From Candidatus Poribacteria bacterium (lineage in GTDB: Bacteria; Poribacteria; WGA-4E; PCPOR2b): a stretch of DNA of 64,000 nucleotides. Each line of letters begins with the position of its first letter. Positions within the stretch are counted from its first letter, which is position 1. The notes below the pieces were generated by a model. The model did not search any database. It was given only the letters and a program-made list of their open reading frames with translations, and was not told the origin of the DNA. Positions 11,597-23,763 of the stretch are shown piece after piece. The stretch is from the NCBI GenBank assembly GCA_965208325.1, contig OZ242326.1:2240001-2304000 (forward strand), read 5' to 3'. A program made the translations under genes and the position numbers.

Positions 11597-12472
11597 TTGC
11601 GAGCGTTTGACTATATACCCGCAAAAACCGTTGATGAGGCAGTGGCTTTGCTCGCGGAAAAGGGAGATCAGGCGAAACCGTTGAGCGGCGGTACCGATCT
11701 CATTGTTATGGTTAGGGAAGGCAGGCGGCAGTTGGATTTGATGGTAGATGTCAAAGACATCCCCGAAACCAATGTGCTTTCGTATTCCCAAGAAACCGGC
11801 TTACATCTCGGCGCGGCTGTGCCCTGCTATCAAATCTACGCGGATGATGAAATTTCCGCTGCTTATCCGGGGCTTGCAGACGCTGCCAAGATTATCGGAG
11901 GCACCGCAATTCAAGGCAGAGCGAGTGTCGGCGGCAATTTGTGCAACGCCTCACCCGCTGCGGATACGATACCACCGCTAATTGTGCTAGAAGCCGTCTG
12001 CGTCATTGCGGGTCCAAACGGGACGCGCGAAGTCCCAGCAGAGCAATTTTGCACAGGACCGGGGCAAACCGTCTTGGAAAATGGAGAATTTCTCGTATCG
12101 TTTAATATTCCCCCACCCAAGCATAATTCAAGCTCTTATTATCTTCGATTTATCCCGCGAAATGAAATGGACATCGCAGTGGTGGGCGCGGGCGCATCAG
12201 TCGTCTTGGACACGGAAAAAACGTCGTTCGTCTCAGCTCGAATCGGACTCGCTGCGGTCGCTCCAACGCCACTGTACGCCGAGGAAGCCAGTGCGTCGCT
12301 TGCCGGCAGGGAAGTGTCCGACGAAGCGGTCAATGCAGCAGCTGAAGCGGCGCGCCACATCGCCCGACCAATCAGCGACATGCGCGGAACGATTGAACAG
12401 CGGGTTCACCTCGTTGAAGTGCTGACACGCCGCGCCTTAAATGGTGCAATTCAAAGAGTGAAGGAGTCGTGA
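11597..12472 (+). CDS. Xanthine dehydrogenase family FAD-binding (medium) subunit
   Basis: SGGTDL, ASVGGNLCNASPAAD, AVAPTP, PISDMRGT; AAGGAG RBS. Confidence 0.93.
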   Translation: MRAFDYIPAKTVDEAVALLAEKGDQAKPLSGGTDLIVMVREGRRQLDLMVDVKDIPETNVLSYSQETGLHLGAAVPCYQIYADDEISAAYPGLADAAKIIGGTAIQGRASVGGNLCNASPAADTIPPLIVLEAVCVIAGPNGTREVPAEQFCTGPGQTVLENGEFLVSFNIPPPKHNSSSYYLRFIPRNEMDIAVVGAGASVVLDTEKTSFVSARIGLAAVAPTPLYAEEASASLAGREVSDEAVNAAAEAARHIARPISDMRGTIEQRVHLVEVLTRRALNGAIQRVKES

Positions 12473-12478
12473 AAATAG

Positions 12479-12967
12479 ATGCCGAAAAAAGTACATGTTC
12501 AAACGACAATTAACGGCGAAACTGTTGAATTTCTGTGTGAGCCTCGCCAGAGCCTGCTTGAAGTCCTTCGAGATGAACTCGGAATGACCGGCGCCAAAGA
12601 AGGTTGCAACAACGGAAACTGCGGCGCATGCAGCGTAATTCTTGACGGACGGCTGGTCAATTCCTGTATTGTGCTTGGCGTTGAAACTGAAGGGAAAACG
12701 GTGGAAACCGTTGAGGGTCTCGCCGAGCCGGGAAAACTCCATCCGATACAGGAGATTTTCTTGGAAGATGCGGCACTTCAGTGCGGTATCTGCACGCCCG
12801 GCTTTATCGTAGCAACAAAGGCACTGCTGGACAAAAATCCCAACCCAACTGAGTACGAAGTCCGTTACTGGCTGGCAGGCAATCTATGCCGTTGTACCGG
12901 CTACGATAAGATTGTCCGCGCCGTGCTCGATTCGGCTCAAATTATGTCTTCGGAGGTAGGTGCATAA
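12479..12967 (+). CDS. Xanthine dehydrogenase family [2Fe-2S] (small) subunit
   Basis: GCNNGNCGACSV, QCGICTPG, GNLCRCTGY. Confidence 0.95.
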   Translation: MPKKVHVQTTINGETVEFLCEPRQSLLEVLRDELGMTGAKEGCNNGNCGACSVILDGRLVNSCIVLGVETEGKTVETVEGLAEPGKLHPIQEIFLEDAALQCGICTPGFIVATKALLDKNPNPTEYEVRYWLAGNLCRCTGYDKIVRAVLDSAQIMSSEVGA

Positions 12968-15222
12968 TGTCAGAGAAGAAAGAATATAAAGTCATCGGCA
13001 CCCGTCCTATCCGGCATGATGGTGTCGACAAGGTGACAGGCCGCGCCCTCTACGGCGCAGATTTCCAAACTACCGGGCTGCTGCACGGCAAGGTTTTGCG
13101 CAGTCCCCACGCCCATGCCCGCATTAAATCCATTGACACTAGCCGCGCTGAAGCCCATCCCGATGTGAAAGCGGTCGTGACCGCGGCGGACCTCCCTACA
13201 GCAGCGGACAAAATCGCCGATCTCGGTGAAAGTGCAGTCAATCTGAAATATCTGTGCGACAATATTCTTGCGAGCGACAAAGCCCTATACACAGGGCATG
13301 CAGTCGCTGCACTCGCGGCGAGCGACCCTCATACGGCTGAAGAAGCGCTTGAACTCATTGATGTCGAGTACGAGGTGTTACCGCCGGTGCTTGAAGTGCG
13401 GGAAGCGATGGAAGACGATGCGCCGCTGCTGCATGAAAATCTGAAAACCGACGCGATGGGAGAAAAGTCTGAAGAGTCGAGTAATGTCGCGAGTCATTTC
13501 CAACACAAAAAGGGCGACATTGACACGGGCTTTGCGGAAGCGGACGTTGTCATCGAACACGATTTTGTTACCGGCACCGTGCATCAAGGCTATATCGAAC
13601 CTCACAACGCAACCGCACTGTACAACCCCGACGGGCAACTCACCATCTGGTGCAGCACGCAAGGCGCATTTGCCGTGCGTCAACAAGTATCGGAAATCCT
13701 CCAGATTCCGGTTTCCAAGGTTAAGGTGGTGCCGATGGAGATTGGCGGCGGGTTCGGCGGGAAGATTAGTGTTTATCTTGAGCCGGTTGCCGCGCTGCTT
13801 TCCAAGAAATCGGGCCGTCCAGTCAAAGTCTTGATGAACCGCGCAGAAGTTTTTGAAGCCACGGGACCGACCCCTGCATCTTACATCCGAGTAAAGATGG
13901 GCGTCACTAATGATGGGCGAATCACCGCAGCAGAGGGCTACTTGGCGTTTGAAGCCGGCGCTTACCCGGGTTCACCCGTTGGCGCGGGAGCCATGTGTAT
14001 CTTCTCCCCTTACAATATCCCAAATGGGCTGATTGATGGGTATGATGTAGTCGTCAATAAACCGAAATCTAACGCGTACCGCGCGCCCGGCGCGACAAAT
14101 GCCGAGTTTGCTGCCGAAACCGTCGTCGATGAAATCTGCGAGAAGCTTGGCATGGATCCGCTCGAATTCCGCATCCTCAACGGAGCAGAAGAGGGAGTCA
14201 GCCGCATTGACGGCCCCGTATTCCCGCGAATCGGTTGCATCGAAGCAACTGAAGCCGCAAAGGAACATCCACACTACGAAGCGCCGCTCGAAGGGGAAAA
14301 TAGAGGGCGCGGTGTGGCGTCCGGGTTCTGGTTCAATGTCGGATTGAAGTCGAGCGTCGCAATTAACGTGAACCCCGATGGTACCATTAGCCTTGTTGAG
14401 GGTTCGACCGATATTGGCGGCACACGGGCGTCGATTGCAATGCAAGCCGCGGAGGTACTGGGAATTCCCGCCGAATCGGTCTATCCCACCGTAGTCGATA
14501 CAAATTCGGTCGGGTATACAGATGTAACCGGCGGCAGCCGAACCGCATTTGCGACGGGATACGCCGCCTATGAAGCTGCGCAGGATGTCAAGCAGCAGAT
14601 GACCGAACGCGCCGCAAAATTGTGGGAGGTCGATGCAGCGGAAGTGCAGTTCGCGGATGGCGATTTTGTATGCGTGAACGGCAAAGATGAGCGCATGAGT
14701 TTCAAGGAGTTGGCTGCGAGGCTGGATGAAGTCGGCGGTCCGGTCACCGGGCGTGCTTCCGTCGATCCGACTGGGGTTGGCGGCGCTTTTGCCACGCACA
14801 TCGTTGACGTTGAGGTCGATCCGGACACCGGCAAGGTCGAAATCCTGCGCTACACAGCGACGCAAGACGCTGGAAAAGCCGTCCATCCCAGTTATGTCGA
14901 AGGGCAGATGCAAGGCGGCGTCACGCAAGGGATTGGCTGGGCGTTGAATGAGGAATATATCTACGACAAAGACGGGCGAATGTCCAACGCGAGTTTCCTC
15001 GATTACCGCATGCCAACCTGCCTAGATTTGCCGATGATTGACACGGTCATCGTTGAAGTTCCCAATCCGGGCCACCCGTACGGTGTGCGAGGCGTAGGGG
15101 AGGTTCCAATCGTTCCGCCCCCCGCTGCGATCGCCAACGCTATCTATCGCGCAATTGGTGTTCGGATGAAGGAGCTCCCAATGTCTCCCGGCCGGATACT
15201 CAAAACGATGGGCAAACTCTAA
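12967..15222 (+). CDS. Xanthine dehydrogenase family molybdopterin-binding (large) subunit
   Basis: LRSPHAHARI, GGGFGGK, AYRAPG, EGQMQGG, RGVGE. Confidence 0.95.
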   Translation: MSEKKEYKVIGTRPIRHDGVDKVTGRALYGADFQTTGLLHGKVLRSPHAHARIKSIDTSRAEAHPDVKAVVTAADLPTAADKIADLGESAVNLKYLCDNILASDKALYTGHAVAALAASDPHTAEEALELIDVEYEVLPPVLEVREAMEDDAPLLHENLKTDAMGEKSEESSNVASHFQHKKGDIDTGFAEADVVIEHDFVTGTVHQGYIEPHNATALYNPDGQLTIWCSTQGAFAVRQQVSEILQIPVSKVKVVPMEIGGGFGGKISVYLEPVAALLSKKSGRPVKVLMNRAEVFEATGPTPASYIRVKMGVTNDGRITAAEGYLAFEAGAYPGSPVGAGAMCIFSPYNIPNGLIDGYDVVVNKPKSNAYRAPGATNAEFAAETVVDEICEKLGMDPLEFRILNGAEEGVSRIDGPVFPRIGCIEATEAAKEHPHYEAPLEGENRGRGVASGFWFNVGLKSSVAINVNPDGTISLVEGSTDIGGTRASIAMQAAEVLGIPAESVYPTVVDTNSVGYTDVTGGSRTAFATGYAAYEAAQDVKQQMTERAAKLWEVDAAEVQFADGDFVCVNGKDERMSFKELAARLDEVGGPVTGRASVDPTGVGGAFATHIVDVEVDPDTGKVEILRYTATQDAGKAVHPSYVEGQMQGGVTQGIGWALNEEYIYDKDGRMSNASFLDYRMPTCLDLPMIDTVIVEVPNPGHPYGVRGVGEVPIVPPPAAIANAIYRAIGVRMKELPMSPGRILKTMGKL

Positions 15223-15245
15223 ATATTGGGTTAGTCGAAAAACCA

Positions 15246-15281
15246 GTGCCTGCCTCTAATTTGAGGCAATGGGGCAGGCAC
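15246..15281 (+). terminator. Hairpin after the molybdoenzyme operon
   Basis: GTGCCTGCC ... GGCAGGCAC perfect 9-bp stem; no clear U-tract. Confidence 0.3.
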
Positions 15282-15301
15282 GCTACCAACATCATTCTCT
15301 T

Positions 15302-15421
15302 AGGACTTACGCAATAAGTTCAATAGTCCCCCTGATAAGGGGGATTTAGGGGGTTAGAAACATGGAAATAACGAGTTTTAAGTCCAATTTTTGCTTTTTC
15401 TGCTCAATTTGCGTAAGTCCT
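15302..15421. mobile_element. 120-bp MITE-like element
   Basis: Perfect 13-bp terminal inverted repeats AGGACTTACGCAA / TTGCGTAAGTCCT; internal CCCCCTGATAAGGGGG hairpin. Confidence 0.65.
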
Positions 15422-15466
15422 TTCTCGGTATTTCCAATCCTCCCCGCATTCATGTAAGGCAATACC

Positions 15467-15772
15467 ATGCCAATCGTATCAGTCCCCTCCCTCATGCAGA
15501 ATCTCACCAACGGCGCAGACAAAGTTACCGTGGACGGCGAAACACTTCGAGAAGTGATTGATAATCTTGAAGAATCCTATCCCGGCTTCAAAGCACGTCT
15601 CTGCGACGGCAACCGGATTCGGAAAAACATCTCGCTGTACATCGACGGCACCATCTCACGGGAAGGCATGCGTCAACCCGTAAAAGCCGACACCGAAATC
15701 CACTTCCTCCCCGCCATAAGTGGTGGTTGTAGCCTAATGCCCGCCAAGGACACTGAAGTTGTTGCTGTCTAG
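15467..15772 (+). CDS. MoaD/ThiS family sulfur-carrier (ubiquitin-like) protein with C-terminal extension
   Basis: VSVPSL, GETLREVIDNLEESYPG, EIHFLPAISGG followed by 14 extra residues. Confidence 0.85.
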   Translation: MPIVSVPSLMQNLTNGADKVTVDGETLREVIDNLEESYPGFKARLCDGNRIRKNISLYIDGTISREGMRQPVKADTEIHFLPAISGGCSLMPAKDTEVVAV

Positions 15773-15840
15773 GCGCAGCGCGTTGGGGATAGTGTGTCTA
15801 TCTCCTTTTTGGCGTTAAGTTATTCAGGGGGCAATTCCTG

Positions 15841-16605
15841 ATGAAGAGGATGGTTTACTGTTCCATTGCGCTTACCGTGTTCGTGTGTGCGGTCACCATT
15901 GAAACTCCGGCTGACCTTGTTGAGGGGTTAATTGCCGCTTGGTTACTCAATGAGGGAAAAGGTTCTGTAATGAAAGATGCTGTGGGTGACCATGATGGCG
16001 AAATCGATGGCGGTGTGTGGACTGAAAACGCCAAGAACGGTAAGTCTGCCTATCGACTTACACACAAAACGCTCATTACTGTTAAGAATTCGGTGGATAT
16101 CGATAGATTAGATGATGGGTTTACAATCGCACACTGGATAAACCCCAAACAGGGCGGCGCGATTATGGATGAATCGGGGCATGACGGTTCGAGGATCCAG
16201 TGGTACATTCTCAATGACAGACGCCACCATTGGGGCATCGGCCCGGTATGGGGGATATCGGATGGCAATCCCGTTGCTGCCTTTCACACGTGGTATCACT
16301 TCGCATGGTCGCATGAACCAGATGACGCGAGCATAATCTATCGCAACGGCAAAGAAGTTGGCAGGAACCGCCTCGGGGCTGTGCCGGTGACCGGAAGGAA
16401 TATGCTCTTTGGTAACCGGTTGCCTTGGGAGGGGCGGCAAGAGTGGTTCAATGGGATATTGGACGATATCGGTTTTTGGAATCGACCGCTATCCGAAGAG
16501 GAAGTCAACGAACTCATAGAGGTGGGGCTACCTAATGTCCTTGGTGTTGCCCCACAGAGCAAATTAGCAACGACGTGGGCAACACTCAAAACTTATCTAA
16601 ATTAG
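15841..16605 (+). CDS. Secreted LamG-like jellyroll domain protein with conserved C-terminal tail
   Basis: Signal peptide, AAWLLNEG, WYHFAW, FNGILDDIGFWNRPLS, tail VAPQSKLATTWATLK. Confidence 0.88.
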   Translation: MKRMVYCSIALTVFVCAVTIETPADLVEGLIAAWLLNEGKGSVMKDAVGDHDGEIDGGVWTENAKNGKSAYRLTHKTLITVKNSVDIDRLDDGFTIAHWINPKQGGAIMDESGHDGSRIQWYILNDRRHHWGIGPVWGISDGNPVAAFHTWYHFAWSHEPDDASIIYRNGKEVGRNRLGAVPVTGRNMLFGNRLPWEGRQEWFNGILDDIGFWNRPLSEEEVNELIEVGLPNVLGVAPQSKLATTWATLKTYLN

Positions 16606-16740
16606 CACATGTACTTCCTTTGCACTTACTCTCATCACCTCACAACTTTGCCGACGCGCGCCGATATATCGTAGCATCTTCTTTCTTCAAATGTGGTTAC
16701 AGTCATCCACCGGCATCAAGCGCAACGATTTGCAGTTCTT

Positions 16741-17003
16741 GTAGGTTGGGTTGAGCGAATAAACCCAAAATCGTAACAATGGCAGATGTTCGGCCGGAAC
16801 ATCCAAACGCCCTTTTACCGAAATTGATGTAGCGTAACCCAACGCTTTTCAATTCACCCAGCTATTTCTGTATGCTCAAATACTTTCGAAATAACCAAAA
16901 GCGTTGGGTTCGCTAAATCCTAACAAACTCTATACAACATCAAATCCCGATATCAATTCGGCATATTGCTTCCGTTTCACTTGCTCCGCTTAACCCAACC
17001 TAC
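16741..17003. repeat. REPIN-like palindromic element, copy 1
   Basis: Ends GTAGGTTGGGTTGAGCG / CGCTTAACCCAACCTAC, inner arms TAGCGTAACCCAACGCTTTT / AAAAGCGTTGGGTTCGCTA. Confidence 0.8.
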
Positions 17004-17009
17004 AAAAAC

Positions 17010-17229
17010 TTTAATTCCTCATTGGCGTCTAGAACAGGTTAAAGCAACGCTAATTTCTATTTGCCAGAAGAAAAACAAAACCAAAAAAGTCATTGAATAC
17101 TTCAACTTAAGAAACCAGTCGAAGCATTTACTGAAATGTGCCAAGCGTGCGGTAGAAATCGCCATTGAGCAGGATGAACAGACCGCTATTGACTATCTGG
17201 AAAATCAAGCACAGGAGGTAATCGGATGA
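17010..17229 (+). pseudogene. C-terminal remnant of a restriction-modification S-subunit-like gene
   Basis: HWRLEQVK ... FNLRNQSKHLLKCAKRAVEIAIEQDEQTAIDYL resembles, from recall, the C-terminal helix of HsdS-like subunits; 5' part missing; LPEEKQ reads in a shifted frame. Confidence 0.55.
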
Positions 17230-18536
17230 ACATCACCCAATTTTCAATAGAGGAGGTTCGTTGTTTTGCGGAACGTCAGGAATTTGAAATTCGGCCGTTG
17301 ACCTTTTTGGTCGGAGAGAACAGTACCGGCAAGACTACTGCATTGGCATGTTTCCAAGCGTTAGCAGATTATTTGACGGAAGGGAAAGTAGATTTCGATT
17401 CAAATCCCTATTCAATGGGAATCTTTAAGGATATTGTGAGAATCAGCAGGAAAACGGAGAAGACGTTTAGGCTTGGGTTTGCCTTTAGAGACAAGCATGA
17501 AGATATTGAATGTGTCGTTGAATTTGTTAAAAAAAAGGGAGGGGATGAACCTGCTATCGGATCGGCAACAATAACTTTTACGGATGGCACTATCGTTTTG
17601 AACTCTGACGGTGAAGAGAAAGGAGGTTTGCCTTACACCTATTTTAATAAGGAACAAGATCGGTATCTCATAGGCGTTAATTCTGCTACTTTGGATAGCA
17701 ATTCTCCTTCTTTTCTTCTAAGTCGTTTTCGCCATAGAGGCAGCCGGGGCACCGAGGTAGAAAATGCCTTAGCTGACTATTTACATGAAAAGAAGGGAGG
17801 TTTGGGAGATTCATGGGAGATGGGAGGAAGTCCTGTATTTAGTATGTCACCGATTCGTTCTCAACCGAAACGAACGTATGACAAAATGAGGGAATTTGAT
17901 GATCCTGAGGGAAGCGATATTCCAATACGGTTAATGCGTATAAAGGCAACGAATAAAGACAAATGGGAATTTTTGAGAGCAAGGTTAGTCGAATTTGGTA
18001 AGAGTGCGGGACTATTTCACAACGTTGACGTAAGGAATTTTGGTAAGGCTATGGGCAACCCATTCAAACTCACAGTCAAGGTAAGGGGACCAAACTCCAA
18101 TGTCATTGATGTAGGCTATGGGGTCAGTCAAATTTTGCCGATTTTAGTGAACGTCTTCGATCAACCTGTCTCTCGGCAACGTATTTATAAAAGCGGCAGA
18201 ATTCCGTTCTTCCTATTACAACAGCCCGAAGTCCATCTGCACCCGAGAGCACAGGCAGAACTATCGTCCCTTCTAGCGGCATCGGCAAGCGAGGGAAATC
18301 GGACATTTATCATTGAAACACACAGTGACTACATGGTTGACCGGGCGCGCGTAGAAATCCGGAAGGGCACCATCCGCCCTGAAGATGTGTCGCTTATATA
18401 TTTGGAACCAAAGGGCAATGTTGTCAAGGTGCATAACATCTGTTTTGATAACATGGGTAATATGGAAAAGGTACCGCCGCACTACAGAGAGTTTTTCCTG
18501 AAAGAAACCAAGCGGCTCATGGGTTTTGAGGATTAA
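17226..18536 (+). CDS. ABC-type ATPase (AAA_15/AAA_21-like, DUF3696-like C-terminus)
   Basis: Walker A GENSTGKT, signature-like DVGYGVSQ, Walker B region LLQQPEVHLHP, H-loop IETHSD; no TM partner. Confidence 0.88.
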   Translation: MNITQFSIEEVRCFAERQEFEIRPLTFLVGENSTGKTTALACFQALADYLTEGKVDFDSNPYSMGIFKDIVRISRKTEKTFRLGFAFRDKHEDIECVVEFVKKKGGDEPAIGSATITFTDGTIVLNSDGEEKGGLPYTYFNKEQDRYLIGVNSATLDSNSPSFLLSRFRHRGSRGTEVENALADYLHEKKGGLGDSWEMGGSPVFSMSPIRSQPKRTYDKMREFDDPEGSDIPIRLMRIKATNKDKWEFLRARLVEFGKSAGLFHNVDVRNFGKAMGNPFKLTVKVRGPNSNVIDVGYGVSQILPILVNVFDQPVSRQRIYKSGRIPFFLLQQPEVHLHPRAQAELSSLLAASASEGNRTFIIETHSDYMVDRARVEIRKGTIRPEDVSLIYLEPKGNVVKVHNICFDNMGNMEKVPPHYREFFLKETKRLMGFED

Positions 18537-18539
18537 GCA

Positions 18540-19085
18540 GTGTGCATAATCTTAGATGTCAATAGTTTCAGTAATTTTAGGAACGCAGATAATGAAGATT
18601 TGGAACCCGTGCGGAATTGGTTGGAGCGCGAAAGCGGAAAAATTGTTTATTCTTCTACTGAGAAATTTCGGTGTGAATGGGAAGCAGGAGGCGGGTACGA
18701 GTTGATGATAAGTCTACTATATCCGGGGTCAAGTCCTTCCTCTTCCATTAGGATGGACTGGGAACAGACAATCATTGAACTGCGAAGGATGGGCAAATTG
18801 AAATTAGTCTCAGCTGACCATGTGCAAGCAAAAGCGGAGGCATTAGAACAATCGGGCGAACTTAGGTCCGACGACCCTCACATCATCGCTGTAGCTATGA
18901 TTGCGAGCGTGAAAGTATTAGTCGTCCAACACCTCCCTAACACGCCAAGAAAAGGAGGACGAAGAGGGGCAAGAGCGGCTGATCCAGCATTGCAGGCAGA
19001 CTTTAAGGACCGCAATCTTGTTGGCGGTAAAGTTTATTCTACAAAAAGCCATTCACACCTGCTTCGTAGAGATACTTGTCCCTAA
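18540..19085 (+). CDS. PIN-domain-like protein
   Basis: N-terminal CIILDVN strand with Asp, later E, DDPHIIAVA and D.ALQADFK acidic residues typical of the PIN fold; starts 3 nt after the ATPase stop. Confidence 0.65.
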   Translation: MCIILDVNSFSNFRNADNEDLEPVRNWLERESGKIVYSSTEKFRCEWEAGGGYELMISLLYPGSSPSSSIRMDWEQTIIELRRMGKLKLVSADHVQAKAEALEQSGELRSDDPHIIAVAMIASVKVLVVQHLPNTPRKGGRRGARAADPALQADFKDRNLVGGKVYSTKSHSHLLRRDTCP

Positions 19086-22092: not shown

Positions 22093-22110
22093 CTTAAGCG
22101 TGTGGTTTTT

Positions 22111-22344
22111 GTAGGTTGGGTAGAGCGGGTAATTACAATACCGTTCTTAAGGAAAAACAAGGTACGGGGAACTCTCGTCGCGCTTGCCGAGATTCATGTA
22201 GCGAAACCCAACGCTTTTCTGTCGGCCAGAGGTTTGAAAAGCGTTGGGTTTCGCTTTAGGCATACAAGTCCTGAACTCAATCGGCAAACTATATTTATGC
22301 TGCATAGTTCACATGTTTCATAAAATCCGCTCTACCCAACCTAC
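22111..22344. repeat. REPIN-like palindromic element, copy 2
   Basis: GTAGGTTGGGTAGAGCGG / CCGCTCTACCCAACCTAC ends, inner AGCGAAACCCAACGCTTTTC / GAAAAGCGTTGGGTTTCGCT. Confidence 0.8.
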
Positions 22345-22508
22345 AAGAGTTGCCGATACAATTCTCAGATGTGACGGTACGCCGGTGATGGTCGTAAAAT
22401 GAATTCGCAAGGTAACCAAAAGGTAACCGAAAAAAAGATCTGTTTCGACAACAAAAATTGGCCGCCGCAAAACAATTTTACCAAGCGATTAATTGAGCGA
22501 TGGTTCTT

Positions 22509-22772
22509 GTAGGTTGGGTTGAGCGGATAAATCAAAAAATGTAAAAATGGCAGGTGTTTGACCGGAACATCAAACGACCCCTTTACCAAAATTGATGTAG
22601 CGTAACCCAACGCTTTTCAAATCACCCAGCGGCTACTGAATGCTCAAAAACATTTGAAATAACCAAAAAGCGTTGGGTTCGCTAAATTCAAACATCCTCT
22701 ATACAACATCAAATCCCGAAATCCATTTGACATATTTCGTCCATTTCACTTGCTCCGCTTAACCCAACCTAC
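22509..22772. repeat. REPIN-like palindromic element, copy 3
   Basis: Same ends and inner arms; alignable with copy 1 over its full length. Confidence 0.8.
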
Positions 22773-22998
22773 AAAAACCGGGAATCGGATTAGGTCATCT
22801 ATCGAAAGCGTGAGATTTTTATGAACCGTGTGCAATCAGCCGATTAACTGGCGAGAAACCAGATGGTTAGTTTAGCATTGAACTTAAGCATCTAGCTATG
22901 CTAGAATGCGTAGCAGAGGTTAGGAGAGGAGATAGTCAATCAGGGCATGATGTATCTATCTCGTTTTTGCGCAAGAATTCTAAAGGGGAGGATTCCTA

Positions 22999-23763
22999 AT
23001 GAGGAGGATAGCTTACTGCTTCATTGCGATTACTGTATTTGTCTGCCTGATTTCCGTTAAAGCTCCGGCTGACCTTGTTGACGGACTGGTTGCCGCGTGG
23101 TTGCTCGATGAGGGAAAAGGGGCTGTTATGAAAGATGCTGTCGGTGACCACGACGGCGAAATTGATGGCGGGGAATGGACTGATGACGCCAAGAGCGGAA
23201 AGTCTGCCTATCGGCTTGCGGGTCAAACGCTCATTACGGTTAAAAATTCGAAGGACATTGATATCCTAAAGGACGGGTTTACGATCGCCCACTGGATTAA
23301 CCCCAAACAGGGCGGCGCGATTATGGATAAATCGGGGGATGACGGTTCGAGAATCCAGTGGTACATCCTTGGCGACAAACGCCATCATTGGGGCATCGGC
23401 GGGGCATGGGGGTTCTCGGACGGCAATCCAGTTCCCAATTTTAACGAATGGTATCACTTCGCATGGTCACACGAACCAGATGAAGCGAGCATTGTCTATC
23501 GTGACGGGGAGGAAGTCGGCATGAACCGCCTCGGGGCAGTGCCGGAGACTGGGAGAGACATGCACTTTGGCAACCGGTTGCCTTGGGAGGGCCGGCAAGA
23601 ATGGTTCAATGGGATATTGGACGATATCGGTTTCTGGAATCGACCATTATCCGAGGCTGAGGTCAATGAACTCATAGACAAGGGGCTGCCAAATTTCCTC
23701 GCCGTCTCGCCACAAGGCAAATTAGCAACAACGTGGGCAACACTGAAAACTCGCCTAAATTAG
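22999..23763 (+). CDS. Secreted LamG-like jellyroll protein (close paralog of 15841..16605)
   Basis: Same length (254 aa), long identical blocks, tail VSPQGKLATTWATLK. Confidence 0.88.
   Translation: MRRIAYCFIAITVFVCLISVKAPADLVDGLVAAWLLDEGKGAVMKDAVGDHDGEIDGGEWTDDAKSGKSAYRLAGQTLITVKNSKDIDILKDGFTIAHWINPKQGGAIMDKSGDDGSRIQWYILGDKRHHWGIGGAWGFSDGNPVPNFNEWYHFAWSHEPDEASIVYRDGEEVGMNRLGAVPETGRDMHFGNRLPWEGRQEWFNGILDDIGFWNRPLSEAEVNELIDKGLPNFLAVSPQGKLATTWATLKTRLN

Follow-up and report, generated by a model that had tools for sequence, protein, structure and literature searches.

A candidate anti-phage module in Poribacteria: a translationally coupled ABC ATPase–PIN gene pair compared with HEC-03 and Menshen

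Two described defence systems in which an ATP-binding cassette (ABC) ATPase is encoded beside a PIN-fold protein, HEC-03 and Menshen, come closest to the gene pair analysed here, which comprises a gene for a soluble ABC ATPase followed by one for a stand-alone PIN-domain protein and lies at positions 17226–19085 of a 64,000 nt stretch of a Candidatus Poribacteria bacterium genome (GenBank assembly GCA_965208325.1, contig OZ242326.1, positions 2,240,001–2,304,000; the whole stretch is called the window below). According to the portions of the preprint drawn on here, in HEC-03 an ABC ATPase is paired with a VapC-like PIN protein; the system is embedded in Hma systems and needs both genes for defence, and its ATPase is unrelated to VapB antitoxins (10.1101/2024.01.29.577857); the PADLOC model HEC-03B denotes the ATPase that the preprint names HEC-03A. 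The same source lists PDC-M55 as one of 145 untested candidates that sit within BREX, DISARM or type I restriction–modification (RM) systems (10.1101/2024.01.29.577857). For Menshen we rely on the corresponding portions of the describing paper (PMC12065111): the system is made up of NsnA (a ParB–DUF262 sensor), NsnB and NsnC; NsnB is an ABC ATPase that carries a DUF3696 tail and in which the Walker B pair DE is changed to EN and SGG to GxG; NsnC carries an N-terminal inactive PIN (inPIN) domain and a C-terminal nuclease; and AlphaFold 3 places the inPIN domain between two NsnB tails. A D-E-D-D set of residues is given there as the mark of active PINs, and 27.9% of the operons of Menshen have links to BREX, type I/III RM or methylases. 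Since that survey was seeded on NsnA, pairs without NsnA would not have been collected in it.

We consider it probable that the window pair is a self-contained, translationally coupled and mobile ATPase–PIN module, most likely an anti-phage system (of the abortive-infection or toxin type) built as an ‘ABC-ATPase sensor plus nuclease effector’. In a scan of one genome per species, 380 relatives of the PIN protein were confirmed, and the best 80 loci (designated L with a number) were kept for the analysis of linkage and context. The ATPase gene lies directly 5′ of the PIN gene on the same strand in every one of the 80, with tblastn matches to the two proteins no more than 26 nt apart in 77 (the gap in L064 is 219 nt), so that the pairing is far above chance. 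Identity to the window pair ranges from 42 to 74% for the ATPase and from 36 to 66% for the PIN protein. The loci, all from metagenome-assembled genomes (MAGs), belong to Poribacteria (52), Caldilineaceae (12), Latescibacterota (11), Gammaproteobacteria (1), Alphaproteobacteria (1) and Flavobacteriales (1), two being unclassified, and because the pair is highly similar across such distant phyla, horizontal transfer is implied. When 1117 flanking open reading frames (ORFs) were clustered, only the ATPase and the PIN protein proved common to nearly all loci (78 and 77 members, respectively), the next-largest clusters reaching at most 23 loci. An earlier note on this DNA, made from the sequence alone, had looked to homologues for both linkage and enrichment near defence genes; the linkage was found throughout, whereas defence-gene neighbours, considered below, were few.

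In the window, the two genes are separated by 3 nt (TAA-gca-GTG); GAGGA lies 5′ of the GTG, and AGGAGG precedes the ATG of the ATPase gene. The GTG start is supported by the N terminus MCIILD, which is kept among homologues. The GC content is 0.41–0.47 over 17.0–19.2 kb, compared with 0.54–0.58 over the molybdoenzyme genes at 12–15 kb, and the low GC relative to the flanks, together with the coupled ribosome-binding sites, is consistent with a mobile module. The genes around the pair encode a LamG protein, a pyrroloquinoline quinone (PQQ) β-propeller and a periplasmic binding protein, and no permease adjoins it in the window. Scans for promoters and terminators gave chance-level results only. 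The two-gene unit, its AT-richness relative to the molybdoenzyme genes and the absence of a membrane permease had all been described in the earlier note, and each is upheld.

The ATPase matches the Pfam families AAA_15 (1.6e-18), AAA_21 (3.8e-15) and AAA_23, and shows weak Pfam similarity to SMC_N and RecF. Its match to ABC_tran (19.3 bits) is under the cut-off of 25 and no permease adjoins the gene, so that a reading as an ABC transporter was rejected. Among PADLOC models the best match is NsnB of Menshen (1e-38, residues 3–432 to model positions 2–343 of 345), followed by PDC-M55A (1.7e-37, in two stretches, the best being residues 291–431) and by partial matches to AriA (2.4e-21), HEC-03B (1.1e-19, residues 244–419), Old, GajA and PtuA; the ATPase also resembles, weakly, MAD3 of MADS, a methylation-associated system. 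The soluble ABC-type ATPase of the earlier note can thus be placed, by its Pfam and PADLOC matches, in a defence-associated group. Moreover, hhalign aligns the ATPase family with a plasmid protein annotated DUF3696 in RefSeq (99.7%, 398 columns, C-terminal tail included), the tail residues 373–432 being covered, and the Walker B of that plasmid protein reads MEQPE. The Pfam DUF3696 family is absent among the matches listed (25 of 29 families) for 58 ATPase family members.

The sole solved sequence relative found for the ATPase is the Thermus OLD-family protein 6p74, in which IIEEPEMYLHPQAQ aligns with LLQQPEVHLHPRAQ of the window ATPase and IIEEPE with LLQQPE. By this alignment both acidic Walker B positions are replaced by Gln, in agreement with the earlier reading of the motif as lacking its usual acids. 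Across 199 ATPase family sequences each of Q332, Q333, P334 and E335 reaches at least 97% conservation, and the Walker A GENSTGKT, the GYG signature and the H-loop ETHS are conserved also; since the Gln pair is conserved across the family, it does not represent decay. Exchange of Glu for Gln at the catalytic glutamate of ABC ATPases blocks hydrolysis, ATP-dependent engagement still being possible. Two related loci carry interrupted ATPase genes: at L059 (5429–8001) the ATPase is in two pieces, the best-matching of which is separated from the PIN gene by 1.6 kb, possibly an insertion, and at L056 (6652–7994) an ORF of its own is made up of the N-terminal 120 codons, the gap to the PIN gene being just 7 nt.

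The second protein was recognized as a PIN protein at the level of its family. In a 90%-clustered collection it has 87 homologues of 103–181 aa, and its profile, run against 1.84 billion representatives, gathers 1725 clusters (50% identity) at E≤1e-3 and 1027 at ≤1e-10. The best 150 representatives are 79–185 aa long, and the top matches are stand-alone proteins throughout; longer or fused forms were sought and not found, which is weak evidence for their absence. When 96 diverse family members were scanned singly, 75 matched Pfam PIN (PF01850, best 3.9e-11), and there were further matches to PIN_3 (18), PIN_4 (6) and DUF4411 (6). In the alignment of these 96 sequences there is no variation at D6, D112 and D148, while E46 and D154 show at least 90% conservation. 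The AlphaFold (AF2) model of the window copy (predicted local distance difference test score, pLDDT, 84.7) has PIN/VapC structures as its top Protein Data Bank (PDB) matches in Foldseek, which are weak (E 0.013–0.05, template-modelling score, TM, 0.32–0.55). For an insertion-free homologue of 140 aa (pLDDT 93.0) the top PDB matches are nearly all VapC/PIN, 3zvk, 1w8i, 1y82, 5h4g, 1ye5 and 5x3t among them (probability 0.96–1.00, TM 0.45–0.64, root mean square deviation 3.6–4.8 for the best). Sequence identity to solved VapCs is 14–20%, and the nearest ESM Atlas clusters, which we treat as leads only, are named PIN (score 0.95). From the family alignment and the models, we conclude that the window protein is a divergent but genuine PIN-domain protein with a D-E-D-D set, membership being established for the family; to this extent the PIN-like identity proposed earlier stands. 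The family profile run against PDB sequences returned chance-level matches only (best DnaD, 0.019), and these were set aside. Nothing significant was retrieved with the PIN model from a viral structure library, where the top entry was a ‘PIN like domain’ protein (E 0.064). The two insertions of the window subclade are missing from the core family of about 140 aa and are modelled with low confidence; that at residues 131–147 forms an Arg/Gly-rich loop just before the invariant D148, where contact with nucleic acid is possible.

Directly 5′ of the pair, the window holds what remains of a type I-like HsdS gene (Table 1). The ORF matches the C terminus of type I specificity subunits (PADLOC Specificity_I, 2.7e-5), residues 395–468 of the full-length HsdS of L027 align to window 17008–17220 with 61% identity (tblastn), and its stop codon overlaps the ATPase start as ATGA. 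L007, L014 and L027 each have a methyltransferase gene, then an HsdS gene, then the ATPase and PIN genes, and the HsdS stop likewise overlaps the ATPase start. The methyltransferase (M) at these loci combines an N-terminal HSDR_N_2 domain, which we take to be a nuclease, with an N6_Mtase domain (PADLOC MTase_I up to 982 bits), and no match to a helicase or HsdR family was found among the ORFs scanned there. Possibly the methyltransferase–HsdS (M–S) part represents an RM unit that is HsdR-less or type IIB-like, with the ATPase and PIN genes as its last two genes.

Synteny with L027 extends over window 12821–15300 (L027 1–2477, 87%), 15422–15790 (L027 2472–2839, 83%) and 17011–18664 (L027 6449–8137, 74%). 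These blocks bring 3.6 kb of L027, comprising M and most of S, into correspondence with 1.2 kb of the window, comprising a LamG gene and a miniature inverted-repeat transposable element (MITE)-like repeat. The repeat ends at 17009 and homology to L027 resumes at 17011, which marks the breakpoint of the loss of the M and S genes. A second copy of the repeat is found at 22503–22778 (86–87%) and a partial one at approximately 22105–22346, the family size being about 240–275 nt. HsdS C-terminal remnants also lie directly 5′ of the pair in L018 and L002. Considering both the M–S operons and the HsdS remnants 5′ of the pair, we infer that in one sublineage the pair was formerly embedded at the 3′ end of an M–S operon, and that the M–S part was lost more than once, leaving the pair intact. 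In the window lineage, the pair once stood at the 3′ end of such an operon and M–S was deleted beside the MITE-like repeat. The RM-like remnant and the repeat-rich surroundings mentioned in the earlier note are both confirmed, the LamG gene being duplicated as well.

Table 1. Coordinates of the features of the gene pair, its 5′ region and the related four-gene loci. Positions are those of the window unless a locus is named.
Feature	Position	Strand	Remarks
Soluble ABC ATPase gene	17226..18536	+	436 aa, ATG start
Walker A GENSTGKT	17313–17336	+	in the ATPase
Non-canonical Walker B LLQQPE	18213–18230	+	ATPase residues 330–335
Stand-alone PIN-domain gene	18540..19085	+	181 aa, GTG start
PIN acidic residue D6	18555–18557	+	
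PIN acidic residue E46	18675–18677	+	
PIN acidic residue D112	18873–18875	+	
PIN acidic residue D148	18981–18983	+	
PIN subclade insertion, residues ~61–83	18720–18788	+	missing from the ~140-aa core family; low model confidence
PIN subclade insertion, residues 131–147	18930–18980	+	missing from the ~140-aa core family; low model confidence
Type I-like HsdS remnant	16966..17229	+	87-codon ORF; last ~74 codons correspond to the HsdS C terminus
MITE-like repeat	16735..17009		~275 nt; inverted termini TTGTAGGTTGGGT ... ACCCAACCTACAA; direct-repeat families D2–D5
M–HsdS–ATPase–PIN locus	L007 2813–8423		
M–HsdS–ATPase–PIN locus	L014 2849–8429		
M–HsdS–ATPase–PIN locus	L027 3046–8435		

Two other elements of the window recur at related loci. 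A molybdoenzyme cluster of the xanthine/CO-dehydrogenase family (11597–15772; genes for FAD-binding, 2Fe-2S and 751-aa MoCoBD subunits, then a ThiS-like ORF) is syntenic with L027 1–2839 of a Poribacteria MAG at 83–87% nucleotide identity. Paralogous 254-aa LamG (Laminin_G_3) genes with signal-peptide-like N termini lie at 15841–16605 and 22999–23763, their 5′ regions (15785–16084 and 22943–23242) being 77% identical, and LamG genes are also recurrent neighbours at the related loci.

In the mechanism that we propose, a dimer or tetramer of the ATPase would bind the PIN protein and hold it inactive, probably via the ATPase C-terminal tail, by analogy with the docking on NsnB that is predicted for NsnC's PIN-like domain. 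Since both acidic Walker B residues are Gln, the ATPase would probably act as an ATP-binding switch rather than hydrolyse ATP fast. Its state would then be changed by a phage-derived trigger, and the PIN protein would thereby be activated or released and, acting as an RNase, would cleave RNA and stop growth in the manner of abortive infection.

Several observations weigh against this proposal. The window PIN protein itself has no match in Pfam (E≤1), PADLOC, NCBIfam or PHROGs, PADLOC holds no dedicated model for its family, and neither PIN model has a Foldseek match at E≤1e-3. The Gln–Gln Walker B could instead mean that the ATPase has a role without any ATP turnover. With regard to context, the window pair's own neighbours are not defence genes; the recurrent neighbours at related loci that have a Pfam match are metabolic or housekeeping proteins (thiamine pyrophosphate enzyme, LamG, PhyH, VWA/BatA, sulfatase); and PADLOC matches at E≤1e-5 were found for none of 23 recurrent-neighbour representatives. 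A PADLOC scan at E≤1e-8 of 130 of the 146 immediate neighbours, representing 67 loci (the other 16 neighbours are from L073–L080), gave an RM- or MADS-type neighbour in only eight loci, a raw count given here with no background rate. Finally, no close relatives of the pair were found on plasmids or phages, only distant relatives of the ATPase (at most 32% identity). In the preprint portions used here, systems found by embedding are less often associated with other defence systems than are those found by island enrichment (10.1101/2024.01.29.577857).

Among the immediate neighbours with PADLOC matches are the HsdS proteins directly 5′ of the pair (L007, L014, L027), mad3-like ATPases (L007, L018, L063), type III methyltransferases (L010, L011) and a type IIG enzyme (L070); generic matches are to a protease-like region (L025, L039, L061) and a HIT protein (L041, L070), and that at L056 is to the fragment of the pair's own ATPase. 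The mad3-like proteins are SMC_N/AAA_23 ABC ATPases (L007 8497–10209, L018 8697–10409, L063 5733–6509), so that two different ABC ATPases are adjacent at these loci. Relatives of the PIN protein were not found on plasmids. An Aeromonas plasmid (L081 4004–5927) and a Bacillus plasmid (L082 3359–5820) each encode a distant DUF3696-type ATPase whose gene is followed by a hypothetical gene that overlaps it; these units, which lack a DUF262/NsnA gene, adjoin AbiE/AbiG and Hok/Gef modules. The partners downstream of these two ATPases have no kinship to the window PIN family that hmmsearch or hhalign could detect; the Aeromonas partner (177 aa) has a PIN-like start, VIDTNVL, by eye only, and a PDB sequence search with it gave no PIN match. 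A P2-EC5 prophage fragment (L083 243–2913) holds ORF555 followed by ORF333, a two-gene cassette of ATPase plus partner in a P2-like phage, ORF555 being distantly related to the window ATPase (27% identity across the C-terminal half).

Of the explanations that compete with an anti-phage module, the one that survives best is that the pair is a toxin–antitoxin (TA), or addiction, module, in which a VapC-like PIN toxin would be countered by the ATPase as an unconventional antitoxin and the role would be persistence or stabilization of the region rather than phage defence. The PIN protein is indeed VapC-like in fold and residues, yet the 5′ gene encodes a 436-aa ABC ATPase and there is no small DNA-binding VapB-like antitoxin; HEC-03 in the preprint's account equally has no VapB-like antitoxin and nevertheless defends against phage (10.1101/2024.01.29.577857). 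The compact, coupled arrangement and the varied, mostly housekeeping contexts would suit an addictive module, as would the fact that the pair has outlived the decay of the adjoining RM genes. The ATPase, however, is better conserved than the PIN protein (42–74% against 36–66% identity), which is unusual for an antitoxin. We therefore regard a pure TA role as unlikely, while recognizing that TA and abortive infection are overlapping readings, which need not exclude each other.

We judge it very unlikely that the ATPase and PIN proteins serve as the restriction component of a type I-like RM system that lacks HsdR and has four genes (M–S–ATPase–PIN), of which the stand-alone copies would be decaying leftovers or orphans. 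A full M–S unit is directly 5′ of the pair in just three of the 80 loci, with remnants in two more and in the window, and the pair is intact and conserved without M–S. That the HsdS stop and ATPase start overlap in the three complete operons, where no helicase or HsdR match occurs among the ORFs scanned, and that remnants persist 5′ of the pair in the window, L018 and L002, does point to an ancestral association, and the weak similarity of the ATPase to MAD3 of MADS fits as well; the methyltransferase, however, has an HSDR_N_2 domain of its own, and VapC-type PINs are, in the portions of the Menshen paper used, RNases and not DNA restriction enzymes (PMC12065111). A housekeeping role, for example one in which an SMC/RecF-like ATPase and a nuclease partner process RNA or repair DNA, of importance to sponge-associated bacteria, is barely credible: the mostly metabolic neighbours, the approximately 50–75% identity of the ATPases in many Poribacteria, Latescibacterota and Caldilineaceae genomes and the weak SMC_N and RecF similarity would agree with it, but high similarity in distant phyla implies horizontal transfer, the pair is lower in GC than its flanks and the flanking genes differ among loci, a sublineage is associated with RM, the characterized members of the ATPase group are defence proteins, and some copies (L056, L059) are disrupted.

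If an anti-phage function is correct, the pair would add a large, uncatalogued family (1725 representative PIN clusters at 50% identity) to the ABC-ATPase/nuclease immune class, one that would bridge two described systems by joining the architecture of HEC-03 to a Menshen-related ATPase. It would also provide a natural contrast for the role of PIN domains in such systems, as adaptor or as nuclease, and its invariant Gln–Gln, a natural ‘EQ-type’ variant, could show whether ATP binding alone gates the effector. Phage defence is little known in the sponge-associated Poribacteria, Latescibacterota and Caldilineaceae, among which the pair is common.

With respect to other known systems, PARIS (AriA/AriB), Septu (PtuA/PtuB) and Gabija (GajA/GajB) share with the window pair the combination of an AAA_15/AAA_21 ABC ATPase with a nuclease effector, and an ATPase oligomer that holds or regulates the nuclease, as we propose for the pair. 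Their effectors, in contrast, are TOPRIM (AriB, the GajA C terminus) or HNH (PtuB) proteins and not PINs, their matches to the window ATPase are partial and weaker (2.4e-21 to 1e-8), and neither the PIN protein nor its family matched the PADLOC models AriB, PtuB or GajB. The VapC toxins of VapBC have the same PIN fold and acidic residues and are the nearest solved structures, but a 436-aa ATPase takes the 5′ place of the small VapB antitoxin in all 80 loci, and membership of the VapBC type II TA systems was rejected on this ground. PDC-M55 resembles the pair in that PDC-M55A matches the ATPase, and its RM-embedded provenance, as given in the preprint portions used, fits the M–S–ATPase–PIN loci; its models, however, match none of the 96 PIN family members (E≤0.01). 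A full-text literature search returned no paper containing the term ‘PDC-M55’, and one for DUF3696 together with PIN returned just the paper on Menshen and one on BREX that is unrelated.

The likeness to Menshen, as far as the portions of its paper used here describe the system, lies in an NsnB-like ATPase with a non-canonical Walker B and a GYG signature that fits the GxG replacing SGG in NsnB, both conserved, and in the gene order, the gene right after the ATPase opening with a PIN-fold domain; frequent linkage to type I or III RM and BREX is a further trait of Menshen that recalls the RM context of the pair. Unlike Menshen, the pair has no NsnA nearby, the 5′ positions in the window being taken by the HsdS remnant and LamG, and NsnA models matched none of the 130 immediate neighbours scanned at the 67 loci (PADLOC, E≤1e-8); the PIN protein keeps the D-E-D-D acids that are lost in all NsnC inPIN domains described in that paper and has no C-terminal effector domain; and the Walker B of the ATPase has QQ where NsnB has EN. 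Considering the lack of NsnA and of an effector domain and the retention of the catalytic residues, we exclude the pair from Menshen proper. A bolder reading would make the family a catalytically active two-gene form of the NsnB–NsnC core, its PIN protein being docking module and effector in one and its QQ ATPase a non-hydrolysing ATP-binding switch; in M–S operons the pair might supply the effector of a type I-like modification system without HsdR. We hold this to be quite unlikely; were it true, it would show that ‘inPIN’ adaptors originated after the fusion of extra nuclease domains.

HEC-03, within the compass of the preprint portions used, likewise has two genes, one for an ABC ATPase and one for a VapC-like PIN protein that stands alone, and is embedded in DNA-modification-based systems. 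The differences are that its ATPase model, HEC-03B, fits only the C-terminal half of the window ATPase and is ranked below NsnB, PDC-M55A and AriA, that the window PIN protein has no match to a HEC-03 model and only one of the 96 PIN family members does (6e-4), and that the window family is embedded in type I-like M–S operons whereas HEC-03 is embedded in Hma. We conclude from these profile comparisons that the architecture is that of HEC-03 while the protein families differ. The earlier note had been unable to assign the pair to a named system; this stands insofar as the pair is a strict member of neither Menshen nor HEC-03, but the kind of system to which it would belong has a name already and, on the preprint's account, has been validated in another family, that of HEC-03, of which the window pair appears to be a counterpart built from different proteins.

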